From: Acidimicrobiales bacterium
GTDB lineage: Bacteria > Actinomycetota > Acidimicrobiia > Acidimicrobiales > DASWIA01
Assembly: GCA_036397895.1 (NCBI GenBank)
Contig: DASWIA010000056.1
Location: 2,468-66,467 of the forward strand
Direction of reading: 5' to 3'
DNA: 64,000 nt
Position 1 is the stretch's first letter. Every line of letters begins with the position of its first letter. The notes under the pieces are model-generated. The model was given only the letters and a program-made list of their open reading frames with translations, searched no databases and was not told where the DNA came from. Of the stretch, positions 8,436-26,282 are shown in pieces. A program made the position numbers and the translations under genes.

Positions 8436-8508
8436 GCCGGTGTAGCTCAGTTGGCAGAGCAGCCGCCTTGTAAGCGGCAGGTCGTCGGTTCGATTCCGAC
8501 CACCGGCT
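8436..8508 (+). tRNA. tRNA-Thr (anticodon UGU)
   Basis: Hand-folded cloverleaf. Acceptor GCCGGTG/CACCGGC, D stem GCTC/GAGC, anticodon stem GCCGC/GCGGC with loop CTTGTAA, T stem GTCGG/CCGAC, T loop TTCGATT. Confidence 0.9.
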
Positions 8509-8518
8509 CGTCGGTGAC
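8465..8518 (+). repeat. attL-like direct repeat (3' half of tRNA-Thr plus 10 nt)
   Basis: 53 of 54 nt identical to 13043..13096. Imperfect similarity (11/13) continues for 13 more nt. Confidence 0.85.
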
Positions 8519-8963: not shown

Positions 8964-10418
8964 CTACGGTGCCGACACGACCGGCGGTGTGGGCGTGTCG
9001 CACTCGCCCGAGGCGAGGTAGGCCGTCCATCCGCCGTGGTGGGTGATGTCGGGCGCGCCGGCCACCGCGTAGGACTCGCACACGAAGCCCTGGACCGCCG
9101 TGCCGTCGGCCAGCTCGATGGTGCCGATGCCGAGCGGCGCCGGGATGCCGGCGACGAACGAGCCGAAGCCGTCGGTCGGGAGCCGCCACACCTCGGTGGC
9201 GACCTGTGCGCCGTCCTCGGCCACACGCACGAGGCCGGGCTTCGGGGGCACCGTCGGCAGCGCCGACAGCCGGTACGCGGGCGCGGTCAGGACGGCGGCG
9301 ACGAAGTGGCCACCCCGGTCTGTCAGCTGGTGGTTCAGCGGCTGGCCGCTGAGATGCGCCCCCACGACGACCACGTCGGTCCACCCGACCCACGCCGGGG
9401 GGAACGGGTCTGGCTCGCCGGCGAGCCGGGCGCCGGCGGTGACCACCACCGGATCGGCGAAGGCGGGCCCGAGGAAGGTGACGCCGAAGGGCACGCCGTC
9501 GTCGCGCCACCCGCAGGGCACCGCCGCCGCGCACAGGTCGAGCGGGTTGGCACCCGCCGTGAAGGTCCCCATGCGGAGGTTCACCTCGAGCGGGTCGGCG
9601 GCGACGGCGGCGATCGTCGGGGCCTCGCCGACCGTGGGGACGGCCACCACGTCGAGGTCGAGCCACCATGCCGCCACCGCCCGGCGCAGGGCGTGGAGCC
9701 GGCTGCGGGCGGTTCCCGAGGACGCCGCGTCGATCGAGCCGCCCCGGGCGATGATCGTCGCCACCGTCGGGTCGGCGCCCTCGCGATGGGCCGCCAGGAA
9801 CTCGCCGACCACCGCGTAGCGCTCGGGCAGGAACGCGGCGCCGTAAACGAGCTGACCGGCTTCGAGGTACGGCGACAGGTCGACCTCGCGCACGGGGCCG
9901 AGGCGCGACAGCTCCTTGCTGGCTCGCTCCCATGCGCCGGTGGCATGGGCGTCGAGGGCCGTGAGGTCGGCGGCGCGCGGCACGCCGATGCGCAATGGCC
10001 CCCGCGGCACGACCGGCGTGCCGATCGGGATCGGTCGGGTGCCGCCGGCCATGGTGGAGAGCGCGCCGGCTGCCTCGCCCACCGTGCGGGCGAAGACGGA
10101 GACGCAGTCGAGCGAATCGCACGCCGGCACGACGCCGTCGGTGCTGACGAGGTCGACGGTCGGCTTCAGCCCGACGATCCCGCACAGGGCGGCCGGCACG
10201 CGCCCGGAGCCCGCGGTGTCGGTGCCGATGCCGAGGTCGGCCTCGCCGATGGCCACGGCCACCGCCGATCCGGAGCTCGAGCCACCGGTGACACGGTCGG
10301 CAACATGGGGGTTGGCGGCCACGCCGTAGGGCGAGCGCGTCCCGACGAGGCCGGTGGCGAACTGGTCGAGATTGGTCTTCCCCACGACTACGCAGCCGTC
10401 GTCGACGAGCCGCTGCAC
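8964..10418 (-). pseudogene. allophanate hydrolase-type amidase, N-terminally truncated
   Basis: The ORF begins at GKTNLDQFATGL and retains GGSSSGSAVAVA and the C-terminal allophanate-hydrolase-like domain. It lacks about 110 N-terminal residues, including the catalytic Lys region of the amidase signature family. Confidence 0.55.
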
Positions 10419-11559: not shown

Positions 11560-12478
11560 ATGCGCGGCCATGTCAGAAAGCGCGGCAACCGGTGGGCGTT
11601 CGTCGTCGACGTCGGCACGGACGACACCGGCCGGCGGCGGCAGAAGTGGCGCAGCGGGCTCGCCACCCGCAAGGAGGCCGAGGCCGAGCTGCGGCAATTC
11701 CTCTACCGAGTCGAGCACGGCGGCGACCCATTCCCGACCGACATCAGGCTTCGGGACTTCGTGGTTCGCTGGGTCGAGCATCAGGCGACCCGAGTCCGGC
11801 CTTCGACGGTTCGGCGCTACCGGAAGGTCTTCGACCTCCACGTGCTCCCCGTCGTCGGGAACCTGAAGCTCACGGCGCTCCGACCAGCTCATGTGCAGGC
11901 TGTGATCGACGCGACCGCCCGCAAGGGCCTGTCGAACCGCACCGTGACCGAGGCCCGCAACGTGCTCTCCTCCGCGCTCCGGCACGCGGTGGCGTGGGGG
12001 CTGATCCAGGTGAACCCGGCGACTGCGGTTCGCCCTCCCAAGGTCGAACGACGGCGACTCGACGTCCCTTCCGCGGCTGAGGTCGCCCGGCTGCTCGAGG
12101 CAGCACGTGGCTCGACGTGGGAGGTACCGCTGCTGCTGGCGGCGACCACTGCTCGGCGCTCGGAGGTGCTGGCGCTGGCGTGGAATGAGGTCGACCTCGA
12201 CCGAGGCCGCATCCGCATCGTCCGATCGCTCCATCGAGTGCCGAACGAGGACGGTCCCGGCCGTCGCCTCGACTTCTACGAGCCGAAGACGTCACGGTCC
12301 CGCGGGGCTCGCGGCGCCCGGCTTCGTCGCCGCTCGATTGCGTGAGCACCGAGCCGCACATGCGCGACGCCGGCTCGAGCTCGGGCCTGCGTGGGTCGAC
12401 CTCGTCCTCGTGTGCGACCGTGGCGACGGCGGCCCGCTCGACCCCGACGCCATCGGGCGCGCCCTCGGCGGAGGTTGA
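11560..12478 (+). pseudogene. tyrosine recombinase/phage integrase, frameshifted and C-terminally truncated
   Basis: AAGGAGG RBS. The N-terminal SAM-like and core-binding region is intact. The frame shifts near 12303 (KTSRSR then PGFVAARLREH in the +1 frame). The ORF ends at 12478 before the H-x-x-R and Tyr catalytic motifs. Confidence 0.7.
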
Positions 12479-16846: not shown

Positions 16847-17827
16847 ATGACGATGATCGAAGAGCCAACGGCGGTAGCAGAGGTCTCGGGTGTTTCAGCA
16901 ATCGTCCGGGCGATGTTCAGCGAGGGGCTCCCGCAACGAGCTCCGATCCCGTCTCTCACGACTCGTCCGCCGCTGGTCGGTGGGCTGATGAGATCCTCCG
17001 CCCTCACCACGGCCCCCCGGACCCCCGCACCGCGGCTCGAGCTTCTCGAGCTGCTCGAGTACGGCGAGCCTGAGCTCCACTATCAGCCCGTCGTCGAGCT
17101 CTTGTCCGGGCGGGTGATCGGCGCCGAGGCACTCCTGCGGTGGCGCTACGGCGATGAGATCGTGCCGCCGTCCGTGATCGTGCCGCTGGCTGAACAGATG
17201 GGGGTGATCAACGAGATCGGAGCCTGGGTGGTGGAGGAGGCATGTCGGCAGCTCGCTTCGTGGCACCGATCGGCCAATGGAACAACGTTTCCCAGCGTCT
17301 CCGTGAACGTGTCGCCAACGCAGCTGCATGGCTCAGGCCTCGCCACGACCATCACCAGGGCGCTGGCCACCGCCGGCCTGCAGCCCCACCACCTGGCGAT
17401 CGAGCTCACCGAGGACATCCCCATCGTCGGGGTTCACGCCGCCGCAGTGGTGGCCGAGATCGCCGATCTCGGGGTGACCGTCGCTCTCGATGACCTCGGG
17501 GTCGGCCACTCCTCGCTCCGCCTGCTCAGCCAGATGCCGATCCACGTGGTCAAGCTGGATCGGCAGTTCGTCGCCGCGCTCACCAACGACCGAGAGTGCT
17601 ACGAAGTCGTGGCTGGGCTGATCCGTGTCGTGCACGAGCGTGGGAAGGTCGTCGTGGCGGAGGGAGTCGAGACCTCGGAGCAGGCCGACGTCCTGCGAGC
17701 TCTGGACGCCGACTTCGCCCAAGGCTTCTTCTTCGGCGCACCCGCACCGCCCACCAGACTCGAATCCCGCCTGGCCCAGAAGTTCGGCTCCTTCGAACCC
17801 GCCGATCTGCTGTGCTGTCGGCGGTGA
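16847..17827 (+). CDS. EAL-domain cyclic-di-GMP phosphodiesterase (stand-alone EAL)
   Basis: All canonical motifs are present: GAEALLRW, NEIGAW, ELTED, DDLGVGHSSL, KLDRQFV, AEGVETSEQ, QGFFFG. ATG at 16847 is preceded by GAAGGG. Confidence 0.8.
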   Translation: MTMIEEPTAVAEVSGVSAIVRAMFSEGLPQRAPIPSLTTRPPLVGGLMRSSALTTAPRTPAPRLELLELLEYGEPELHYQPVVELLSGRVIGAEALLRWRYGDEIVPPSVIVPLAEQMGVINEIGAWVVEEACRQLASWHRSANGTTFPSVSVNVSPTQLHGSGLATTITRALATAGLQPHHLAIELTEDIPIVGVHAAAVVAEIADLGVTVALDDLGVGHSSLRLLSQMPIHVVKLDRQFVAALTNDRECYEVVAGLIRVVHERGKVVVAEGVETSEQADVLRALDADFAQGFFFGAPAPPTRLESRLAQKFGSFEPADLLCCRR

Positions 17828-18480
17828 CCGAGGCCACGATGATCATGCGCCCGGATTCAGCGATCGGCGTCAGGGTCGCGGCGTGCGCTCGTGGGGAGCT
17901 CGCCTCCCGTCTCCTCGCCGTTCGCACCATGAGATGGCTCATCGATGGGCCCGGATCCGACGATTCAGATGCCGAGAACCGACTCCATCGCGAGCTCGAG
18001 AGGGTCTCGGTGCTCCTCGACCGGGTCGTGTACTGCCTCGCCCCTGACCTCATCCCGTTCTCACCCCGGGAGCTCGACGTTGCCGAGCTCGTGGCCTCTG
18101 TCGCCGAGCGCTTCGGAGGGCAAGCCTCAATCCAGATCGACACCGCGCATGCCCCGGCCATAGCGGACCGGGCCGCCCTTGCTCACGCTCTCTCGAGCAT
18201 CATCGACTTCGGGTTGTGGAGCAGCGACGGGGTCTGGGTCCGGGTGGAAGGAACCAGATCGGATGTCGTCGTCTCGGTTCGCTTCTCCTGTCCCGAGGAC
18301 GACCCTGACCTGGTCGGGGCACTGTTCGAGCCGGTGCTTCCCTCATCGTCGGCCCGACTCGGCCTCGACTCGGTTCGCACGGTGGCCCGGCGCCACCTCG
18401 GCAACGTGGCTGCGACGGCGTCCGGGGGCTCTCTCGAGGTGACGCTCAGCCTTCCCGTCGGGATCACATCGATGACGTGA
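17824..18480 (+). CDS. soluble histidine-kinase-like protein with degenerate ATPase motifs
   Basis: GTG overlaps the EAL stop (GTGA). H-box-like ENRLHRELERV and GHKL-like C-terminal fold pattern. I cannot find the N-box Asn or a DxGxG G1 box. Confidence 0.45.
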   Translation: MTEATMIMRPDSAIGVRVAACARGELASRLLAVRTMRWLIDGPGSDDSDAENRLHRELERVSVLLDRVVYCLAPDLIPFSPRELDVAELVASVAERFGGQASIQIDTAHAPAIADRAALAHALSSIIDFGLWSSDGVWVRVEGTRSDVVVSVRFSCPEDDPDLVGALFEPVLPSSSARLGLDSVRTVARRHLGNVAATASGGSLEVTLSLPVGITSMT

Positions 18481-18513: not shown

Positions 18514-19833
18514 TCAGCCTGATCCCAACGAGCGGTCGACGTGGATCCTGACACCCCCGGCGCCGGTCACGATCTCGCCCGCGAATGCGGTCCCGAAGAG
18601 CGCGGCCCCGCCGCTCAACAAGAGTCGGGCTCCGGGGCTGTAGACGATCCCCAGGAGAACAGCCTGGCTGCGGAGCTCCACGCTGAGCCCCCCATGACGG
18701 GAGTCAGCGAGGAGCTGAAGGTCGCGGGTCCGCCCGGTGTCGACATCGGCGATGCCGCCGGACGACAAGCGGACGACGCTCCCGCCCGGGCAGTGCTCTG
18801 GCCCACCGATCCAGATCGCCACGGGACCCTCAGCTCGGAGCACTCCTCGCACATCGAGCCCGCACAGATGGTACGCCCCCGGCGAGAGCAGCAGCTGTCC
18901 GTCGACGCGGAGCGTTCGCGCCCCGGGATCCCACATCACTCCCTGGCAGGCCGTGGCGACACGACACACGAGGCGGTTGGCGTTGGTCGTCGCCACCGCC
19001 GACGCGTCCAGCTCCTTCAGCACGACCGGTGACGGCAGCGGCGCCGTCGAGCCATCGACCCGAGATGCCCCCGAGATGACAACCTGGCCTCCGTCGGGAC
19101 CGGGTCGGGCGTCGCCATGGACGATGTTGGTGCCGTCGAGCACGATGTCGCCGTTGCTGGCGAGGTGACCATCCCGATCTTCGGTGATCCGTGATCCACT
19201 CGCCGAATCGAAGCTGTCGACGATGGCGTTACCGGAGAAGGTGATACTTCCGAGCCCCACCATCCCGGCGGGAACGAACCCGACGACGAGCGTGTCGACT
19301 GGGGCCGTGGAGAGCTCGACAGACGTCGATGTCTGCACGTGGGCATGGTTCGCGAGGGTGCTGCCCTCAGGAGCTCCGTCATCCACCTCGACGGCGAACC
19401 GGACGGTGAAGCCGTCGCCCGCCTCGAGCGGCGAGTGGCTGCGGACGATCTGATGGGTGATGTCGCCGGCGCCGATGACGGGCACATCGGGCTGCACGCA
19501 GATGTCGCCATCCGGCTCGAACGTCCCCTCGGGACAGCTCTGCGTCGCGGCCGTGGTGTTCACGGGGTAATGGCTGGTGACCACGACCTCATCCATGGTT
19601 GTCTCGCCGATGTTGTCGACCCGCACCGCGTAGTGGATCGTCTCACCGGTCGTAGCGATCGGCCGGTCGACCAGCATCGTGGCGACGACGGCGGGTCCGT
19701 CGTCCTCGGTCTGGCCTGCGGCCGAGGTGGCGCCGCCGGGCAGCGGCACGGCCCACGGCCACAGCGCTGTCGCCGCGGCGACGACGACCGCCGACGACGA
19801 CAGGAGCCATCGCCGGCTCTCGACGTGCCTCAT
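18514..19833 (-). CDS. secreted protein with an N-terminal DUF11-like domain and an uncharacterised Gly-rich C-terminal domain
   Basis: Start set at the second Met (MRHVESRRWLL..., signal-peptide-like), whose ATG overlaps the stop of the upstream small ORF. DUF11-like TGETIHYAVRVDNIGETT. Confidence 0.6.
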   Translation of the reverse strand: MRHVESRRWLLSSSAVVVAAATALWPWAVPLPGGATSAAGQTEDDGPAVVATMLVDRPIATTGETIHYAVRVDNIGETTMDEVVVTSHYPVNTTAATQSCPEGTFEPDGDICVQPDVPVIGAGDITHQIVRSHSPLEAGDGFTVRFAVEVDDGAPEGSTLANHAHVQTSTSVELSTAPVDTLVVGFVPAGMVGLGSITFSGNAIVDSFDSASGSRITEDRDGHLASNGDIVLDGTNIVHGDARPGPDGGQVVISGASRVDGSTAPLPSPVVLKELDASAVATTNANRLVCRVATACQGVMWDPGARTLRVDGQLLLSPGAYHLCGLDVRGVLRAEGPVAIWIGGPEHCPGGSVVRLSSGGIADVDTGRTRDLQLLADSRHGGLSVELRSQAVLLGIVYSPGARLLLSGGAALFGTAFAGEIVTGAGGVRIHVDRSLGSG

Positions 19834-19991
19834 GGCAAGTTGCACTGTTTGTGCCCGATACCGTCGATGCCGACCGTGACGCAACGCGCCTCCGCCGAGG
19901 TCGACGGCGCCAGGATGGCAATGAGGCCGCCCAGCACCAGGGCGGCAATGAGCCGGAGCGGACCCCCATGGGTCCTGGTCATGATCGTCAC
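19830..19991 (-). CDS. small secreted pre-peptide (50 aa from ATG 19982, 53 aa from GTG 19991), not in the ORF track
   Basis: Translation MTRTHGGPLRLIAALVLGGLIAILAPSTSAEA/RCVTVGIDGIGHKQCNLP. Upstream AAAGGGGAG Shine-Dalgarno-like sequence. 41 of 49 codons end in G/C by my count. The TGA overlaps the ATG of the next gene (ATGA). Confidence 0.55.
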   Translation of the reverse strand: MTIMTRTHGGPLRLIAALVLGGLIAILAPSTSAEARCVTVGIDGIGHKQCNLP

Positions 19992-20018
19992 GGTTCTCCC
20001 CTTTGTGTCACACGGTAC

Positions 20019-21944
20019 TCACGGTGACGACATCTGGCGGTGGCGAGGCCGATCTGGTGCCCGTCTGCCCTTCCGCTTGGTGGCGATGGTGGGAAGGGTC
20101 ACGGTGAAGCGGGACCCCTCACCGACCCTGCTCTGGTACCGGATCGAGCCGCCGTGCTGCTCGACGAGCCGCTTGACGACTGCGAGCCCGATTCCCGTCC
20201 CGGCGGGCTGGTCGACTCCCTCCACCCTCTGCGTGCGGTAGAAGGGCTGGAAGATGTCGTCGCCCACCTCGGGGGCGATCCCCAACCCGGTGTCTTCCAC
20301 GTGGATCTGGACAAGCGATGTTGTGGCGGGAGCTCGGCTCGCCTCGACTCGGAGGCGCCCGCCCGGCGGCGTGTACTTCACGGCATTCGACACCAGGTTC
20401 AGCAAGATCTGGCCCAGTCGAACGCGGTCCGCTCGGATCGCTGGGAGCCCAGGCGCGACATCGACCTCGGCCTCGAGATCTCCTCGCCGGGCGAGGGCCG
20501 AAATCGTGGGTTCCATGTCCCGCAGCACGTCGCCAAGGCCCACCGCCTCGAGCTGGAGCTGTGTCTCGCTGGCCCGGCGCTTGGCCAGCTCCAAGATGTG
20601 ATCGACCTGGCGGTTGAGCGCGCTGGCCGCATCGCTGATCGCCAGCCCGTAGGTCTTTGCCCAACCCGTTGACCGCGGCGCGAGGTCGGGGTTCGTCATG
20701 AAGTCGGCGTAGGTCGAGACGACGAGGACATGGTTGCGCAGCTCGTGGACGATCTCGGCGAACTCGCGAGAACGCGTGTGATCGACGAGCTGGAGATCTT
20801 CGGCGAGTCGGGCGAGCTCCTCGGTCCGGGTCTGGACCTGGAGGTCGATCTCCTTCTGGCTGGCCGCGAGCTGCTCCACCATCTGGTTGAACCCACGAGC
20901 CAGCTCCGCGAGCTCGTCATCGCCGTACACCGGAACCCGGGCATCGAGGTCGCCCCGACCGAGCGCCTGGTTGGTGGCGACGAAGGGGCGGACCTGGCGC
21001 AGGATGCCCCTCGCGATCAACGCTCCCAGCGCGACGATCCCCGTCGTCGCAGCCAACAGCAGAAGGATCAGCCTGGTCCGTGCACCCCGGACTCCGGCGA
21101 AGGCCGGATCGGTCGGGAGGCTGACCGCGAGGCTCGCAATCCTCTCTCCGTCCAGGTCGACGGAGGCGTACAGCGTTGACTTCGACGTCCCGTCGTCGGC
21201 AGACCGCAGACGGACCGGAGTGTCGAAGCTCGCCACCGGAACATCGGCAGCACCTGCGGCCGCGGTGTTGAGGACACTGCCGTCGGCGGCGAAGAAGGCC
21301 ACGGCCGCGCCGGCTCGCTCGGTCGCGCCAGCGGCGAGCGTGTCCACGCTGATCCCGACGAGTGAAGCTCCGACGACGCCGCCCTGCAGGGTGACCGGGA
21401 CGGCGACAGCCAGTACCGATCGAGCGGCGTCTTCGATGAAGGCGCTCGACACGCCGGCCGGCGCATCGACCACTCGGGTTCCGTCATCGTCGTCGAGGGC
21501 TCGGGACCAGTCGCCGCCACTGTCCACGGCGAGACCCTCGTCGTCACGTCGCACCTCGACCAGCCCTTCCCCGCCAACATCAGTCACCACGAGGAGCTCG
21601 ATGTCGCTCCGAGCGGCGGCCGCCGACGCGAGCAGGCGGCGCGCGGCTCCGTCATCTCCCTCGACGATCGCCTCCGACATCCCGCTCAGGTTGGCGACGA
21701 GCCTGGCGCCATCGACGAGCGACAAACGGATGTCGCGAACATGCGCCTCGGCGATCACCGCCCGCCGGAGAAGATCCTGGTCGAGCTCGGCCTCGGCCTC
21801 ATCCGCCAACTGCCGAACCACGAGGAACGTGGCAGCCACCGCCAGCGCGACAGTCATGGCGACGAGCGGGATCAGCAGCTTCCAGAGGAGCCCGAGACGT
21901 CCGAACCCTCGTCGGACGACATGGAGAACAGCCGCCGGTCTCAC
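20019..21944 (-). CDS. membrane sensor histidine kinase (large extracytoplasmic domain, HAMP, HisKA, HATPase_c)
   Basis: Two TM segments flank about 290 residues. HAMP region is present. H-box FAEIVHELRNH, N-box LLNLVSNAVKYT, G1 VEDTGLGI, G2 GTGIGLAVV. GTG start at 21944 overlaps the upstream stop (GTGA). Confidence 0.8.
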   Translation of the reverse strand: MRPAAVLHVVRRGFGRLGLLWKLLIPLVAMTVALAVAATFLVVRQLADEAEAELDQDLLRRAVIAEAHVRDIRLSLVDGARLVANLSGMSEAIVEGDDGAARRLLASAAAARSDIELLVVTDVGGEGLVEVRRDDEGLAVDSGGDWSRALDDDDGTRVVDAPAGVSSAFIEDAARSVLAVAVPVTLQGGVVGASLVGISVDTLAAGATERAGAAVAFFAADGSVLNTAAAGAADVPVASFDTPVRLRSADDGTSKSTLYASVDLDGERIASLAVSLPTDPAFAGVRGARTRLILLLLAATTGIVALGALIARGILRQVRPFVATNQALGRGDLDARVPVYGDDELAELARGFNQMVEQLAASQKEIDLQVQTRTEELARLAEDLQLVDHTRSREFAEIVHELRNHVLVVSTYADFMTNPDLAPRSTGWAKTYGLAISDAASALNRQVDHILELAKRRASETQLQLEAVGLGDVLRDMEPTISALARRGDLEAEVDVAPGLPAIRADRVRLGQILLNLVSNAVKYTPPGGRLRVEASRAPATTSLVQIHVEDTGLGIAPEVGDDIFQPFYRTQRVEGVDQPAGTGIGLAVVKRLVEQHGGSIRYQSRVGEGSRFTVTLPTIATKRKGRRAPDRPRHRQMSSP

Positions 21945-22792
21945 TGGACCACGACCACCGTGATCGCCGGCGTGGTCTTCGACCCATCGCGATCGCCCAC
22001 GACGTCCATGTGCGCGTGGTTGGAGATGACGGTGCCGTTCGGCGTGGCTGGATTCACTCGCACCATGAACTCGAAGGCCATCGACGCCCCCTCGACGATG
22101 AGGCCACCGAAGGAGAACCGGACGGTGTGTACCGACTCGCTCGGAGTTCCCGGGACCGGCGCCGCCGGCGCGACGCAGGGATCCTGGGGGTCGGGGTCCA
22201 CTCCTTGGGGTCCGCATTGGCTGGTGGCATCAACGGTCCAGAACGGGTGGTGAGACTCGATCGAGAGCTCGCCTTGGAACGGGTTCGTTCCCACGTTCGT
22301 CACCGTGATCGTGTAGGTGATGAGCCCGCCCGGTTCGACCTCGCCACGATCGGCCCCCATGACCACGTCCAGCTTCGAGAAACGTGGGATCGGCACGCGG
22401 AACCCCCCGTTACCATCGGGGGGAGGCGCAGGTTCGTTCGTCGGTCCCTCACCGTTGGTGTCGGTACCGTTGGTCCCGGTCCCGTCTCCGTTGACGCCGC
22501 CATTGGGAACGGTGACGCTCCCGTTGGGCGCCGCTCCCGCTTGGCGGTCGCCGAACAGCTCAAGGTCTGAGCCGAGTACGTCGCGCAGGAACTCATCGCT
22601 CAGCGGGGGAACAGAGATCACGCCGGCGAGCGGAACCGCCGTGACCAGATCGCGAAATCCAGGAAGCCCGCCGAGCGTTCGCAATGACGGGGTATGCGAC
22701 GCAACGATCGCAGTAGCCGCCAGTGCAGAGCCGAGCAGCACCACGCTGGCACCGATCGCCACCATGCTCTTCCCAGATCGACGTAGTAACAC
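21941..22792 (-). CDS. secreted DUF11-like domain protein
   Basis: Signal or anchor MVAIGASVVLLGSALAATAIVA, a Gly/Asn/Thr-rich linker, and DUF11-like EPGGLITYTITVTNVGTNPF...NHAHMD. An alternative ATG start is at 22765. Confidence 0.6.
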   Translation of the reverse strand: MLLRRSGKSMVAIGASVVLLGSALAATAIVASHTPSLRTLGGLPGFRDLVTAVPLAGVISVPPLSDEFLRDVLGSDLELFGDRQAGAAPNGSVTVPNGGVNGDGTGTNGTDTNGEGPTNEPAPPPDGNGGFRVPIPRFSKLDVVMGADRGEVEPGGLITYTITVTNVGTNPFQGELSIESHHPFWTVDATSQCGPQGVDPDPQDPCVAPAAPVPGTPSESVHTVRFSFGGLIVEGASMAFEFMVRVNPATPNGTVISNHAHMDVVGDRDGSKTTPAITVVVVQ

Positions 22793-23076: not shown

Positions 23077-23742
23077 CTACAGGGTGGCGGTGATGAGGTC
23101 GCCGCTGAGGTCGATCTGGCGGTCGAGCTTGCGCTTGATGCGCTGGAGCGCGTTGTCGATCGACTTCACGTGCCGGCCGAGCTGGTCACCGATCTCCTGG
23201 TAGCTCTTGCCCTCGACGTAGAGCCGGAGGACGTCGACCTCAAGTCCCGACAGGCACTGGCGCACCGAGTTGCGCAGCGACGTGAGGCGCTCGGTGGAGA
23301 CGAGGTCGTCGCACGGGTCGCCCTCGTTGGGATCGACCAGGATGTCCTCGAGACCGCGGTCGGGCTGATCGATCTGCGAGGTGCCGTGCTTGGAGTGATA
23401 CGAGAGGTACTGGTTGAGCGGCTGGTGCTTCTGGCGCGTGGCCGTCTTGATCGCGGTGATGATCTGGCGGGTGATGCACAGCTCGGCGAACGCTCGAAAC
23501 GAGGCCTCCCGGTCGGGGCGGTAATCACGGACGGCCTTGAACAGCCCGATCAGCGCTTCCTGCTCGACATCGTCATGGTCGGCGCCAACGAGAAAGTACC
23601 CACGGCCCTTGGCCCGAGCGAAGCGCCGATAGCGGCTGATCAGCACCTCGAGGGCTCGCTCATCTCCCTCGTTCTGGTAGGTGGCGGCGAGTGTCTGGTC
23701 GTCGATTGAAACGAGGGAGAGAGCGCTGGCGGAGAGCGGCAT
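23077..23742 (-). CDS. Bacillus SigH (Spo0H)-family sigma-70 factor
   Basis: Contains FAELCITRQIITAIKTATRQKH and SYQEI...GRHVKSIDNALQRIKRKL. From memory these match the B. subtilis SigH signature almost residue for residue. Start set at ATG 23742 (221 aa). Confidence 0.8.
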   Translation of the reverse strand: MPLSASALSLVSIDDQTLAATYQNEGDERALEVLISRYRRFARAKGRGYFLVGADHDDVEQEALIGLFKAVRDYRPDREASFRAFAELCITRQIITAIKTATRQKHQPLNQYLSYHSKHGTSQIDQPDRGLEDILVDPNEGDPCDDLVSTERLTSLRNSVRQCLSGLEVDVLRLYVEGKSYQEIGDQLGRHVKSIDNALQRIKRKLDRQIDLSGDLITATL

Positions 23743-24039: not shown

Positions 24040-25074
24040 TCATCGACGGCGGGCCACCTCGAAGCAGGCAAGGGCACCAGCCACACTGACGTTGAGCGAC
24101 GGGAGCACCCCCCGCATCGGGATCGAGACCACGTCATCGCACCGTTCACGTACCAGGCGACCCAGCCCCGTGCCCTCCGACCCGAGGACCATTGCGACGG
24201 GACCGTTCGGCAGCTCGCAGTCCCACAGGGTGGTCGTCCCTCGCTCGTCGACACCGATGACGTGGAGACCGGCTCGACTCATCTCACCGATGGCGGCGGG
24301 CAGGCCGCCGACCACGGCGATGGGGAGGTGCTCGGCGGCACCGGCGGCCGCCTTCATGGCCGCCGCGGTGAACCGCACGGCGCGATGGCGTGGCAGCACC
24401 AGGCCCGTCACGCCCGCTCCGTCCGCGGTGCGGGTGAGGGCTCCCAGGTTGTGGGGGTCGGTGATTCCATCGAGAGCAAGGAGGAAGGGCGGCCGACCCT
24501 GAGGATCGGGCGCGCTGACCAGGTCGGCGAGATCGGTGAGCTCGAGGGGCGTCGCCTTGGCCATGACGCCTTGGGGAACGTCGGTGTGGGCCTCGACGTC
24601 GAACCGGTGCCGGGGGATCCGATGAACAGGGACACCGGCGTCGCGAGCCAGATCGAGGATCTCGGCCAGCAGCACGTTGTGACCGGCGTCGTCGGCTACG
24701 AGCAGATCCTTCACCCGGCGTCCCGAGATCAGCAGCTCTCGAACCGCGTGGAGGCCCTCTACCCGTTCACCGCCGGGGCCACGCTGCTTGCGGGTCGAGC
24801 CACCGTCTCGAGGCGTCGATCCGCGCATTCCCTGGCCACGCGATCGGCTCGATCCACGCGGCCTGGCCGCCGACCCCCGACCGCGCCCACCTGATCCCTT
24901 GGCGCCACCCGACCCGCCGCCACGGCGCGCCTTCGGTGATCGCCCGCCGCCTCCGGACCCCCCGCCGGACGCGCCAGAGCCCCCGGGCCGGTCGGCTGGA
25001 CGCTTGCCCGAACCCTTGCCCGGGCGCTTACCTGAACCCCCGCCTGGGCGGCGGCGACCCGGCGAGCTGGTCAC
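24040..25074 (-). CDS. rlmB: 23S rRNA (guanosine-2'-O)-methyltransferase RlmB (SpoU/TrmH family) with an Arg/Gly/Ser-rich N-terminal extension
   Basis: SpoU motifs LVLGSEGTGL and IPMRGVLPSLNVSVA. About 95 low-complexity residues at the N-terminus. Confidence 0.8.
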   Translation of the reverse strand: MTSSPGRRRPGGGSGKRPGKGSGKRPADRPGGSGASGGGSGGGGRSPKARRGGGSGGAKGSGGRGRGSAARPRGSSRSRGQGMRGSTPRDGGSTRKQRGPGGERVEGLHAVRELLISGRRVKDLLVADDAGHNVLLAEILDLARDAGVPVHRIPRHRFDVEAHTDVPQGVMAKATPLELTDLADLVSAPDPQGRPPFLLALDGITDPHNLGALTRTADGAGVTGLVLPRHRAVRFTAAAMKAAAGAAEHLPIAVVGGLPAAIGEMSRAGLHVIGVDERGTTTLWDCELPNGPVAMVLGSEGTGLGRLVRERCDDVVSIPMRGVLPSLNVSVAGALACFEVARRR

Positions 25075-26282
25075 GGCGCCAACCGGGGGTGGAGCGTGAC
25101 CACGGCCCAGCAGGCGACCGTGCCGCTGGCATCGACACCGGCGAGTCCTTCCGGGGTCTTGCCGGTGATGCTGATCTCACACCCGAGCACCTTGGCGAGA
25201 CGGGATGACATCTCCCTACGGCGAGGGGCCAAACGAGGTTGACGGCACACCACGGTGGCCACGGCGTGGGTGGGGACCCATCCCGCCGACGCGGCCGCGG
25301 CGACACAGTCCACCAGCAGCTCGACGCTGTCGGCGCCCTCCCAGCGAGGATCGGAGTCAGAGTAGCGAGAACCCAAGTCGTCGAGGCCCGCCCCCGACAA
25401 GATGGCATCGGCCAAGGCATGGCAGACGGCGTCGGCGTCGCTGTGCCCGGCCAGCCCACGCTCACCCTCGAAGCGAACTCCTCCCAGCAGGAGCGGCCGC
25501 GTCGGATCGGCGCTCAGCGCGTGGCTGTCGAATCCGTGGCCAACACGGATTGAGCTGGGCCGAGAGCCGATCATCGCCGCGAGCACGGCGAGATCCTCCC
25601 GCGTCGTGACCTTGCGGTTCACCTCGTCACCGGCGACGACGACCACGCGCCCGCCCGCGGCCTCGACCAGCCGGGCGTCATCGGTGGCGTCGCCGCCGAT
25701 CCCATGGGCTCGGCGGAGCAGCTCGGCGCGGAAGACCTGCGGTGTCTGCACGGCCACCAGCGCGCCCCGGTCGACGGTTGCGGTGATGGCGCCGTCGTCG
25801 GCGATCCGCTTCAGGGTGTCGGTGACCGCAAGTGCGGGAACGGCGCCGTCAACTCCCGGATCGTCAAGTGCGTGGCGGCAACGACCCCACAGCTCGGGCG
25901 AGGCCATGGGTCGAGCACCGTCGTGAACGGCGATCAGCCCGGCCGTCGGAGGAACGGCGGCGAGACCGGAGCGAACGCTCCCGGCGCGGGTCGAGCCCCC
26001 GGCCACGACGACATCAGCACCGAGCGGCGGTTCGGCCGTCAGCGGGGCGACGCGGTCGGGCGACACCACCACCACGACGCCAGCCGAGGCGTGGGCCGCG
26101 GCCGCGATGGAGTGGTCGAGCACCGTCGTCCCCCCCAGCAACGCCGCCTGCTTGTCATCACCGAAGCGTTCGCTGCGGCCGGCGGCCACCACGATGGTCC
26201 ACATCTCCTCGAGGCGACGCGGCGACATCAGCCGCTCGAGAGCCGAGCCGTCGGAGCCGACCGGCCCCGACGTCGACGTCAC
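25071..26282 (-). CDS. ispDF: bifunctional 2-C-methyl-D-erythritol 4-phosphate cytidylyltransferase / MEcPP synthase
   Basis: 403 aa. IspD-like N-terminal half (VVAAGRSERFG) and IspF-like C-terminal half (GHGFDSH..., GHSDADV). Confidence 0.85.
   Translation of the reverse strand: MTSTSGPVGSDGSALERLMSPRRLEEMWTIVVAAGRSERFGDDKQAALLGGTTVLDHSIAAAAHASAGVVVVVSPDRVAPLTAEPPLGADVVVAGGSTRAGSVRSGLAAVPPTAGLIAVHDGARPMASPELWGRCRHALDDPGVDGAVPALAVTDTLKRIADDGAITATVDRGALVAVQTPQVFRAELLRRAHGIGGDATDDARLVEAAGGRVVVVAGDEVNRKVTTREDLAVLAAMIGSRPSSIRVGHGFDSHALSADPTRPLLLGGVRFEGERGLAGHSDADAVCHALADAILSGAGLDDLGSRYSDSDPRWEGADSVELLVDCVAAAASAGWVPTHAVATVVCRQPRLAPRRREMSSRLAKVLGCEISITGKTPEGLAGVDASGTVACWAVVTLHPRLAP

Follow-up and report, generated by a model that had tools for sequence, protein, structure and literature searches.

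Extracytoplasmic proteins encoded in kinase operons are known to modulate the partner kinase through its external domain, as LpqB does for MtrB, CseA for CseC, YycH/YycI for WalK, and LuxP for LuxQ. In the last case the tandem-PAS/dCache-like domain of LuxQ reads the partner protein and not the ligand itself. These are full-size proteins or lipoproteins, and we know of no 18-residue partner described among accessory proteins of this type. A much smaller product, MgrB, acts on the histidine kinase PhoQ from outside the cytoplasm in E. coli and Salmonella (PMC8404706, PMC2789325); it is 47 aa long with one transmembrane (TM) segment and a 22-residue periplasmic tail, and control of PhoQ requires both of its periplasmic Cys (PMC8404706). 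DbfQ of Vibrio cholerae is exported by Sec and signal peptidase I (SPase I), is co-transcribed with DbfRS and binds the sensor domain of DbfS. It biases DbfS to the phosphatase mode, with the biofilm lifestyle as output, and an Ala-to-Trp change at position -1 abolishes its function (PMC12714742).

Here we analyzed a short ORF in a 64,000-nt stretch of DNA (the window) from an uncultured member of the Acidimicrobiales. Table 1 lists the ORF and its surroundings. A sequence-only reading had placed a gene for a secreted two-cysteine peptide here, with a GTG alternative to the ATG start. The ORF was found at the same position with an identical translation, and the accompanying observations could all be re-read from the sequence: the kinase stop (TGA, 20019-20021), AAAGGGGAG upstream, G/C at the third position in 41 of 49 codons after the ATG (42 of 50 counting the ATG), and the ATGA overlap (19830-19833) between the peptide TGA and the protein B ATG. 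The spacing of AAAGGGGAG is 13 nt to the ATG and 4 nt to the GTG, and purine-rich boxes of the GGAGG/AAGGA type lie a few to ~13 nt 5' of the peptide start in 11 of the 12 orthologous loci. The GC content per codon position is 0.63/0.55/0.82, and the flanking genes are alike. The gene had also been called unlisted. This holds for the ORF track behind that reading and apparently for the NCBI record of the MAG, but not for the ENA/JGI copies, where the public gene caller reports a 50-aa hypothetical protein; the database sources of the peptide are JGI and ENA only, and a neighbouring gene also has an NCBI entry. Several other ORFs overlap the site of the peptide gene. Since these overlap it and the window (69% G+C, six frames) contains 731 stretches of 50 aa or longer without a stop, the peptide ORF taken alone is within chance expectation.

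Table 1. Coordinates of the peptide gene, its parts and the neighbouring genes in the window.
Feature	Position	Strand	Description
EAL (c-di-GMP phosphodiesterase) gene	16847..17827	+	Convergent with the operon; in place of the HD-GYP/Hpt genes found elsewhere
Protein B, 439 aa	18514..19833	-	Signal peptide, CLIPPER/DUF11 Ig-like domain, DUF7305 right-handed beta-helix (Pfam)
Peptide gene	19830..19982	-	ATG start; 50-aa pre-peptide, MTRTHGGPLRLIAALVLGGLIAILAPSTSAEA followed by RCVTVGIDGIGHKQCNLP; translation, orthologues in 12 loci, dN/dS 0.21
Peptide gene, alternative start	19830..19991	-	GTG at 19991, giving 53 aa
Predicted mature 18-mer	19833..19886	-	RCVTVGIDGIGHKQCNLP; Cys2 and Cys15 invariant; x-D-G/S-x as predicted beta-hairpin turn
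Leader, 32 codons	19887..19982	-	Basic n-region (2 Arg), 15-residue core LIAALVLGGLIAILA, polar c-region PSTSAEA, A-x-A at -3/-1
Shine-Dalgarno-like box	19996..20004	-	AAAGGGGAG, read from the sequence; upstream of the peptide start
Sensor histidine kinase	20019..21857	-	TM, dCache_3-like ectodomain of ~250 aa, TM, HAMP, HisKA, HATPase
Protein A, 274 aa	21941..22765	-	N-terminal membrane anchor, low-complexity Pro/Gly/Thr linker, one CLIPPER-like domain

The picture is different when related loci are compared. The locus set comprised every recovered locus with a homologue of protein B, and a single peptide copy was found directly 5' of the B gene in 12 out of 12 distinct loci encoding a B homologue, giving 17 distinct peptides. 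The peptide frame is open in all 12 loci, as is the -2 antisense frame. In the peptide frame, third-position variation overlies invariant residues, and the dN/dS ratio is 0.21 compared with 0.47-2.2 in the other five frames. The conserved position, the open frame and the synonymous variation over invariant residues take the peptide gene beyond chance. Conservation in syntenic loci and the balance of dN and dS had been proposed as the check on the gene, and both outcomes favor it: judged from these alignments, the short ORF is a genuine gene, translated separately, whose product is an exported two-cysteine peptide. A search for a second, paralogous copy in the window and the related loci found none, with one copy per locus. 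A degenerate DNA pattern of the peptide matched once in the window (0 expected) and in 13 out of 13 related loci tested. By mean pairwise identity the mature peptide (74%) is the most conserved element of the operon in the aligned sequences, against 42-59% for its neighbours (kinase ectodomain 42%, kinase cytoplasmic part 55%, B CLIPPER domain 59%, B beta-helix 47%, A CLIPPER domain 55%). The correlations of pairwise distances between the peptide and its possible partners are 0.66-0.80 and non-discriminating; the values for the kinase ectodomain and for B, 0.66 and 0.67, do not tell the two apart.

The family is small: 5.8 billion proteins include about 17 of its sequences. Many copies, as in L005 and L006, had not been called as genes and so escape protein databases. 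With the 50-aa peptide alone as query, a word-index protein search returned nothing but the query itself, and an exhaustive phmmer search of 1.84 billion representatives with a single-sequence query added only P0019 and an unrelated eukaryote-like repeat protein (P0027). No match to the mature peptide was found in Pfam, NCBIfam or PDB. When 14 peptide members were compared with Pfam, no family was matched by more than one of them (best E 0.022), and sequence profiles of the peptide, protein B and the kinase ectodomain gave no significant match in PDB. The scanned contigs of GTDB representative genomes contained neither a relative of B nor a match to the degenerate peptide DNA pattern. The scanned JGI metagenome contigs likewise gave no match for B or for the pattern, which is weak evidence of absence since two family-bearing JGI records (3300051204 and 3300051099) were not returned by that scan and are evidently missing from the collection. 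The source samples are these two JGI records and ERZ27256989. Judging by the loci found so far, the operon is limited to a narrow group of uncultured Acidimicrobiales-like bacteria. All loci come from closely related organisms, so the conserved gene order partly reflects shared ancestry. Rfam and promoter/terminator scans of the region found nothing, leaving no RNA-element alternative.

A Sec (SPase I) signal consists of a basic n-region, an h-region of about 7-15 residues, a polar c-region and small residues at -3/-1, and this anatomy is found throughout the peptide family. The sequence-only reading had assigned a Sec leader ending in A-x-A, and the assignment holds well beyond the window copy: [A/S]-x-A occupies -3/-1, directly before an invariant Arg-Cys, in all 17 family members. 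One to seven Lys/Arg residues precede the core in 16 of them; P0026 is the exception, probably through a truncated start call. The maximal 10-residue Kyte-Doolittle mean in the leaders is 1.8-3.6. An uncharged stretch of 15-25 residues, with a hydrophobic core of about 13-17, is followed by a polar c-region with Pro/Gly/Ser, and AlphaFold2 places a helix at pre-peptide residues 7-24. Apart from this pattern the leader varies, with an identity of only 34% and a length of 23 to 43 aa. Signal peptidase I would most likely cleave after the conserved A-x-A and release an 18-residue peptide. Other export routes fit less well. A lipobox has the form [LVI][ASTVI][GAS]C with Cys at +1, and the invariant Arg before the invariant Cys (A-x-A-R-C) is incompatible with a lipoprotein (SPase II) signal. 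Tat export was rejected; many leaders have RR, but the window copy and P0024-P0026 lack it. Flp/Tad prepilins have a leader ending in Gly, a hydrophobic mature N-terminus with G/xxxxEY, and tad genes nearby; here the G/xxxxEY motif is absent, the mature part is polar and no Tad genes were found among the neighbours. The ORF is also not a frameshifted N-terminus of protein B, which has its own conserved signal peptide.

The mature peptides share the consensus R-C-x-T-V-G-x-D-G/S-x-S-H-T-Q-C-x-L-P-stop, in which R1, C2, T4, G6, C15 and P18 are invariant in 17 out of 17. Hydrophobic and polar residues alternate, the D-G/S turn is conserved, and the net charge is -1 to +1. An AlphaFold2 model of low confidence (pLDDT only about 53) pairs short strands at residues 33-36 and 45-48. 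We infer that the product folds as a beta-hairpin around the D-G/S turn, stapled by a Cys2-Cys15 disulfide, and that such a disulfide-closed hairpin of 18 residues is most likely what is released. The calculated monoisotopic mass of RCVTVGIDGIGHKQCNLP is 1906.951 Da in the oxidised and 1908.966 Da in the reduced form. Metal binding via His12 was rejected (6 out of 17 members have N, Q or R at this position), and so was a RiPP precursor (no modifying enzymes nearby).

The conserved operon consists of protein A, a dCache_3-HAMP kinase, the peptide, protein B, a receiver-only regulator and an HD-GYP or Hpt protein, with an EAL gene in place of the last in this window. Wherever a contig is long enough, A, kinase, peptide and B are found together. 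The peptide gene directly follows the kinase gene in eight loci (the window, L005, L006, L008, L010, L011, L014 and L016). In the lineage of L002/L003, L017/L018 and L019 the kinase and regulator are divergent, and it is A and B that flank the peptide gene, with stop and start codons that overlap; L012/L013 have the same peptide-B-epimerase order on contigs too short to show the kinase. In 6 distinct loci the peptide stop and the B start share an ATGA or GTGA; elsewhere no more than 30 nt separate the two genes. Start and stop codons also overlap at A/kinase (4 nt), B/HD-GYP (1-4 nt) and B/Hpt, so that a single translationally coupled unit interleaves genes for cytoplasmic signalling with genes for exported products. 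The gene after B is of the HD_5/HD type in L010, L011, L014 and L016, a receiver-HD_5 gene in opposite orientation in L005, and Hpt in L017-L020. None of the output genes (receiver-only, HD_5, Hpt, EAL) has a DNA-binding domain. In L008/L009 the kinase frame runs stop-free into the peptide, and the resulting fusion (cytoplasmic tail, basic linker, hydrophobic segment, external peptide) is topologically possible.

A kinase with a large extracytoplasmic domain had been proposed next to the peptide, and this was confirmed and given an identity: dCache_3 (PF14827) matched 8 out of 8 orthologous ectodomains between two TM segments (best E 2e-7), the kinase of the window scoring 24.9 bits, just under the cut-off of 25.7. 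The alignment of orthologues suggests that the true kinase start lies ~25 codons further upstream, close to the gene A stop. Protein B scores 28.7 bits against PF01345 (cut-off 24.6), which places it in the CLIPPER/DUF11 class; its homologues are 43-49% identical. Its AlphaFold2 model (pLDDT 82, pTM 0.82) is folded without the peptide, and Foldseek matched the ComZ pilin 6qvi, CLIPPER 9ifr (TMt 0.76) and the ice-binding-protein beta-helix 3uyv. The beta-helix resembles pilus-tip and adhesin-type solenoids, and B itself lacks a membrane or wall anchor. TadE/G-like domains were observed only in the distant B homologues P0011 and P0013. The CLIPPER-like domain of A gives a sub-threshold PF01345 score (16.8 bits) and is paralogous to that of B (32% identity, E 3e-12). 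An intramolecular Lys-Asn/Asp isopeptide bond is a feature described for CLIPPER/DUF11 domains (PMC12617251). The presumed first-strand position of B reads V-D-R in most orthologues and V-D-K in one. The conserved Cys number six in B, two in A and two in the peptide.

How does the locus compare with the described systems? Like MgrB, the peptide precursor is very small, has a single hydrophobic segment at its N-terminus and ends in a short tail outside the cytoplasm with two conserved Cys (C2 and C15, 17/17), a likeness of layout only. MgrB is retained in the membrane and its TM residues matter, whereas the A-x-A here predicts release of the tail; mgrB is not adjacent to phoQ; there is no sequence similarity (no Pfam match), and the kinase is of the dCache_3 type and not a PhoQ-type sensor. 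With DbfQ the peptide shares the arrangement of a small exported product encoded with a two-component system. DbfQ, however, has 135 aa with a folded PepSY domain; in the peptide family PepSY was matched by one member only (PepSY_2, E 0.55) and the mature part of 18 residues is too short for the domain. The operon here also adds two exported CLIPPER-domain proteins, and its outputs are receiver-only, HD-GYP, Hpt or EAL proteins and not a DNA-binding regulator. LpqB, CseA, YycH/YycI and LuxP are also extracytoplasmic products of kinase operons, but A, B and the peptide have no homologue among them.

On this basis we favor, at a probability of about 0.5, the reading that the peptide is an exported accessory partner of the sensory module, acting as the released 18-residue stapled hairpin. 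Outside the membrane the hairpin would be a roughly stoichiometric partner that extends a beta-sheet (beta-sheet augmentation) in B and/or A, or else in the kinase ectodomain, and docking would help to set the kinase/phosphatase state. The kinase output would be phosphotransfer to the receiver and c-di-GMP turnover, not direct control of transcription. Such accessory logic would resemble that of MgrB, DbfQ and LuxP more than that of a fast-diverging pheromone. Since the known ligands of dCache domains are mainly small molecules, a peptide bound directly by the ectodomain would be without close precedent.

The sequence-only reading had favored an autoinducing-peptide or ligand module. It was right about a real exported peptide and a kinase in the module; a ligand role is no more than possible. 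In its diffusible form, the released 18-mer would accumulate, the kinase ectodomain would sense density or confinement, and c-di-GMP turnover would be switched, a scenario that we consider unlikely. That the disulfide-cyclised hairpin is a self-made cognate signal of the kinase, read directly or via A/B as co-receptors, with c-di-GMP turnover as the output, is likewise offered only tentatively. The peptide follows the kinase directly in eight loci, the kinase is in the module wherever the contig suffices, and its frame reads into the peptide in L008/L009; a disulfide and a C-terminal Pro would give a protease-resistant extracellular peptide, and a Sec-type leader makes a dedicated exporter or maturation enzyme unnecessary. 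Against this, the peptide is far more conserved than its supposed reader (74% versus 42% for the ectodomain), pherotype-like diversification is absent at a dN/dS of 0.21, and the kinase sits in a divergent operon in the lineage of L002/L003, L017/L018 and L019. Translation is tightly coupled to that of B, and to that of A in one lineage, which suggests a fixed stoichiometry with those proteins, and we know of no precedent for a peptide ligand of a dCache_3 domain. The known Gram-positive systems offer a general likeness, a short ribosomal precursor encoded beside its signalling partner: the AIP is cyclic and read by the histidine kinase AgrC, and the Phr, PapR and NprX pro-peptides are Sec-exported. 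Pheromone peptides typically diverge rapidly, whereas the peptide here is strongly conserved. The hallmarks of AgrD/AIP are an adjacent AgrB, a thiolactone Cys five residues from the mature C-terminus and an amphipathic, not Sec, leader. AgrB and AgrD gave no Pfam match in the peptide or its neighbours, the leader is of the Sec type, cyclisation would be a disulfide across 14 residues and not a thiolactone, and the kinase has a large dCache ectodomain in contrast to the polytopic AgrC. The Phr/PapR/NprX (RNPP) type has an adjacent cytoplasmic TPR receptor and an active linear C-terminal 5-8-mer; no TPR/RNPP gene and no Opp genes were found in any locus, and the conserved unit is the whole two-Cys 18-mer.

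As a fallback it had been suggested that the peptide is a small structural or chaperone partner of the DUF11 proteins. This idea is at least as well supported as the autoinducer, because the peptide stays beside A/B, always directly upstream of B, and because its conservation opposes a pheromone-type divergence. In the strict form the hairpin would cap or complete the edge of a beta-sheet in B or A, for example blocking end-to-end aggregation of the B beta-helix or stabilising it, while the kinase system only regulates the operon or is co-inherited. Such a purely structural role is conceivable because the single rearrangement kept the peptide with A and B and not with the kinase; the peptide being the best conserved element of the operon, and B an anchorless beta-helix like pilus-tip and adhesin solenoids, also fit it. 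We nevertheless find it doubtful as the whole explanation: the interleaving of kinase, HD-GYP and Hpt genes with overlapping codons would be unusual for mere regulated cargo, and with six Cys in B, two in A and two in the peptide there is no unpaired Cys for a covalent link. The confident B model without the peptide (pLDDT 82) is weak evidence in the same direction.

If the precursor were not cleaved, it would be an N-in/C-out membrane microprotein displaying the two-Cys tail, either as a redox-sensitive kinase regulator or as a membrane tether for B. Its size and layout are like those of MgrB and an anchorless B could use a tether, but we consider this very unlikely given a core of about 13-17 residues followed by a polar Pro/Gly/Ser c-region, [A/S]-x-A kept in 17 out of 17, and a leader poorly conserved in sequence and length where functional TM partners are usually conserved; no Pfam family, the MgrB model included, matched at E below 0.02. 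A Sec-dependent antimicrobial peptide or bacteriocin, with the kinase for its induction, is hardly credible: many antimicrobial peptides are built on a disulfide-stapled beta-hairpin of ~18-21 residues, and some bacteriocins are Sec-dependent, but the mature peptides are not cationic, no immunity, ABC-transporter or modification genes were found in any locus, and the family shows strong conservation and not diversification. A chance ORF in a high-G+C spacer, or a translational-coupling leader whose amino acid sequence is irrelevant, could draw on the many open stretches of the window and on the open antisense frame, but is effectively refuted by the comparison of the loci, in which amino acids are kept despite synonymous variation, the lowest dN/dS falls in the peptide frame, six residues including both Cys are invariant across 17 sequences and the signal-peptide anatomy is conserved.

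Exported small proteins that tune sensor kinases, such as MgrB and DbfQ, have only begun to be recognised, with next to nothing described for uncultured Actinomycetota; the phylum is known for small-molecule autoinducers and not for kinase-sensed peptides. The general biological reach of the finding is limited since the family is rare (none in the GTDB representatives scanned). It illustrates that MAG annotation can miss conserved genes of about 50 codons. It also provides a clean and testable case, in which a synthesisable 18-residue peptide, a defined ectodomain, two exported partners and c-di-GMP enzymes as readout are encoded in one operon. Should the peptide bind the kinase or its co-receptors, no smaller proteinaceous partner of a two-component sensor would be known, and dCache_3 kinases would have their first. 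If it is a self-made signal, the operon would represent peptide-based cell-cell or autocrine signalling in Actinomycetota that works without a dedicated exporter or maturation enzyme.

The small ORF that the sequence-only reading had placed between the histidine kinase gene and the gene for the secreted protein B translates as (VTI)MTRTHGGPLRLIAALVLGGLIAILAPSTSAEARCVTVGIDGIGHKQCNLP. Its open frame alone is no evidence, since the window is 69% G+C and holds 731 stretches of 50 aa or more that are free of stops, and this place is shared with four other overlapping ORFs. The ORF's TGA shares bases with the ATG (19833) of the 439-aa gene downstream, GC at codon positions 1/2/3 is 0.63/0.55/0.82, the same as in the adjacent genes, and the reported 41 of 49 codons ending in G or C after the ATG is exact on recount. 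A protein search with the peptide sequence alone found no match except itself, so relatives were sought via protein B. Eight B homologues (43-49% identity) were found, and every contig with one carries a like-built small ORF ending directly 5' of the B gene. A profile from eight peptides yielded 13 called family members, and the four contigs of profile-found members that were examined each show this neighbourhood as well, which makes 17 different peptides from 12 distinct loci, each locus holding a single copy. All 12 loci keep the frame open, a purine-rich SD-like box lies 5' of the start in 11 of them, the stop codon differs between loci (TGA, TAA, TAG), and codons vary at invariant residues (CGT/CGC/CGG, TGC/TGT, GGC/GGT/GGG, CCA/CCC/CCG). 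Over Ala(-1) and the 18 mature codons, pS is 0.54 and pN 0.18, with a dN/dS (Jukes-Cantor) of 0.21 against 0.47-2.2 in the other five frames of the same DNA. The ORF is thus as originally described, and it passed the conservation test proposed with it.

Features of the peptide operon and of the small genes convergent with it
Feature	Location	Strand	Description
Kinase stop TGA	20019-20021	minus	read from sequence
SD-like box AAAGGGGAG	19996-20004	minus	read from sequence
Peptide ORF	ATG 19982 or in-frame GTG 19991 to TGA 19830-19832	minus	read from sequence
Histidine kinase	20019-21857 as called	minus	two TM around ~250-residue ectodomain, then HAMP, HisKA, HATPase
Protein B	18514-19833	minus	signal peptide, CLIPPER/DUF11 Ig-like domain, DUF7305 domain
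Protein A	21941-22765	minus	membrane anchor, low-complexity linker, one CLIPPER-like domain
Small cytoplasmic HATPase-like gene	window 17839-18480	plus	convergent, right after B; 213 aa, weak HATPase_c match
Small cytoplasmic HisKA gene	L008 2684-2992	minus	convergent, right after B; 102 aa, HisKA

The window's DNA is also carried by an 89.6-kb metagenome contig in ENA (ERZ27256989, k141_1942752; locus L001), which has 8 substitutions relative to the window over 21.3 kb, all outside the small gene. Four of the eight crowd into 28 nt of the kinase ectodomain (window 21637-21664), where two residues are altered (V/A, R/N), and may come from microdiversity among strains or from consensus sequences that differ between the two assemblies; further differences are at 9717, 10125, 12894 and 15328. 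The 50-aa gene was already called by a public gene caller in the ENA/JGI copies (L001 9852-10004). The NCBI annotation seems to be without it, since the sources listed for the peptide cluster are JGI and ENA only, and those for the neighbouring protein ('MAG TPA: hypothetical protein VGA13_12225 [Acidimicrobiales bacterium]') also include NCBI. Two orthologues (L005 5832-5984 and L006 3551-3727) were missed by the public caller and lie in apparent intergenic gaps of 190-200 nt, so protein databases under-count the family. It is rare: we found 14 clusters among 5.8 billion proteins, only three matches at E 0.001 or better (one spurious) among 1.84 billion representatives, and no relative of the peptide or of B in GTDB representative genomes or in the JGI contig collection, which clearly lacks the two JGI records known to carry the family.

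The leaders are variable (23-43 residues, 34% identity) and share a common build of basic residues, an uncharged hydrophobic stretch, a polar c-region containing Pro, Gly or Ser, and small residues at -3/-1. The family motif is leader [A/S]-x-A, then R-C-[VAI]-T-[VL]-G-x-[DG]-[GS]-x-[SGT]-[HRNQ]-[TKS]-x-C-x-[LMV]-P-stop, with R1, C2, T4, G6, C15 and P18 invariant in the predicted mature 18-mer. A variable leader in front of a cleavage motif and a tail that are both conserved looks like the pattern of a cleaved Sec signal peptide; it does not fit a functional membrane anchor, and a lipobox is excluded because the Cys is preceded by an invariant Arg. We consider it very probable that this is a real gene for an exported peptide. 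In the 18-mer, hydrophobic and polar residues alternate on either side of a conserved x-D-G/S-x turn, Cys2 would pair in register with Cys15, and the simplest fold would be a disulfide-stapled beta-hairpin. AlphaFold2 (14-sequence alignment) gave a helix at 7-24 and short strands at 33-36 and 45-48, the latter with low confidence (pLDDT about 53). Net charge of the mature peptide is -1 to +1 across the family, a His-based metal site is unlikely since His12 is not invariant, and the predicted mass of the window's mature peptide is 1906.951 Da when oxidised.

The operon occurs in two orders. In the first (window, L005, L006, L008, L010, L011, L014 and L016), A, kinase, peptide, B and HD-GYP genes follow one another, with a receiver-only regulator nearby. 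In the second (L002/L003, L017/L018 and L019), regulator and kinase form a divergent operon, and A, peptide, B and an Hpt or epimerase-like gene follow; L012/L013 show the peptide-B-epimerase order of this type on contigs too short to reach A or the kinase. Coding regions overlap between A and kinase (4 nt), peptide and B (ATGA or GTGA), B and HD-GYP (1-4 nt) and, in L017 and L019, A and peptide (4 nt), and promoter/terminator and Rfam scans found no interrupting terminator-like, promoter-like or Rfam element in the operon region of the window. The HD-GYP position is empty in the window, where a convergent EAL gene and the small HATPase-like gene are found; this gene and its HisKA counterpart in L008 could supply the module with a second kinase component that lacks a sensor. 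Housekeeping genes around the L005 module (glmU-prs, ispE-ksgA, metG-tatD) and even base composition across the window indicate that the module is chromosomal and not obviously mobile. A tRNA-Thr (TGT) gene (8436-8509, plus) and a 261-aa tyrosine-integrase gene (11560-12345, plus) lie ~3 kb apart and flank GntR and amidase genes, and this stretch may mark one end of an integrated element; in L003 an integrase lies ~5.5 kb from the module. Immediately upstream of the module, a 403-aa bifunctional protein (25071-26282, minus) combines IspD and IspF in a single chain. Its gene lies in the usual actinobacterial setting carD - PIN/TRAM - ispDF - SpoU methylase, which is separated from gene A, at this locus only, by an ECF-type sigma-factor gene (23077-23742).

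The kinase probably starts about 25 codons upstream of the called start, and all 8 orthologous ectodomains match dCache_3 (best E 2e-7). In L008 (1260-1550) and L009 (Logan SRR27109257 / SRR27109261) the kinase frame enters the peptide ORF without a stop (...RRKGNRRALRAVAATGMAAALVAGTAGESEA, then RCVTLGADGVSHTQCGMP), and ahead of the hydrophobic core there is no ATG, GTG or TTG, only a CTG, 12 nt beyond an AAGGGGA box. Either kinase and peptide are naturally fused here, which would be topologically coherent, or the peptide has an unusual internal start. The AlphaFold2 model of B (pLDDT 82, pTM 0.82) resembles in Foldseek a solved structure of the CLIPPER domain (9ifr, TMt 0.76), ComZ (6qvi), which is a competence pilin with a beta-solenoid, and the beta-helices of ice-binding proteins; the copper protein YcnI is also listed (TMt 0.61), perhaps only on account of the generic Ig fold. 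Surface adhesins use CLIPPER as a CnaA-like stalk domain (PMC12617251), and in distant B homologues DUF7305 is joined to TadE/G-like pilus domains. The CLIPPER-like domain of A is paralogous to that of B (32% identity, E 3e-12). Both conserve an unusual group of motifs (S-H-x-P, a Cys...Cys loop that is C-x11-C in B, a loop His and N-H-A-H), in which the clustered His residues might form a metal site, and the supposed isopeptide-Lys position (first strand; assigned without alignment to 9ifr) is mostly Arg.

The cytoplasmic signalling proteins of the unit have outputs without DNA-binding domains and are intermixed with exported proteins, so the conserved unit looks more like a single machine for signalling than like a regulator with its cargo. 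The peptide adjoins B in all loci and stayed with A and B when the kinase relocated, modest evidence because it is a single evolutionary event. The mature peptide also has the highest mean pairwise identity in the operon (74%, against 42% for the kinase ectodomain, 55% for its cytoplasmic part, 59% and 47% for the CLIPPER and beta-helix parts of B, and 55% for the CLIPPER of A). A peptide obliged to fit several conserved partners would show this pattern. Together with the read-through in L008/L009, the mixed operon, the constant position beside B and the high conservation favour an accessory co-sensor role (probability about 0.5): once released, the hairpin would attach to B, to A or to both, or else directly to the kinase ectodomain, and would thereby help set the kinase state, a binding mechanism in which we have much less confidence than in the exported gene. 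A purely structural subunit is an unlikely reading of the same unit. A diffusible autoinducer, as suggested together with the ORF, is likewise improbable, since pheromone peptides normally outpace their receptors in divergence and this peptide is more conserved than the kinase ectodomain. Hence the exported two-Cys peptide stands, with a conserved gene and leader build, and the autoinducer proposal is unproven and somewhat disfavoured.

The peptide has no sequence match in Pfam, NCBIfam or PDB and lacks the defining features of AgrD, Phr-type pro-peptides, Flp pilins, lipoproteins and PepSY modulators. It is similar to the accessory partners in the LuxP-LuxQ and LpqB-MtrB systems. Its layout is like that of MgrB, a protein that acts on PhoQ and whose two periplasmic Cys are essential (PMC8404706). 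In genetic logic the peptide is like DbfQ, a Sec-exported protein that shares a transcript with DbfRS and binds the sensor domain (Kd 30 nM; PMC12714742). It would thus be one more of the small exported proteins that partner two-component sensors, and it belongs to no described family. The family occurs in a narrow uncultured lineage, its proposed function being read from sequence comparison, and it represents a clean and chemically tractable case, a kind of small peptide not described before that is embedded in a conserved sensory operon.
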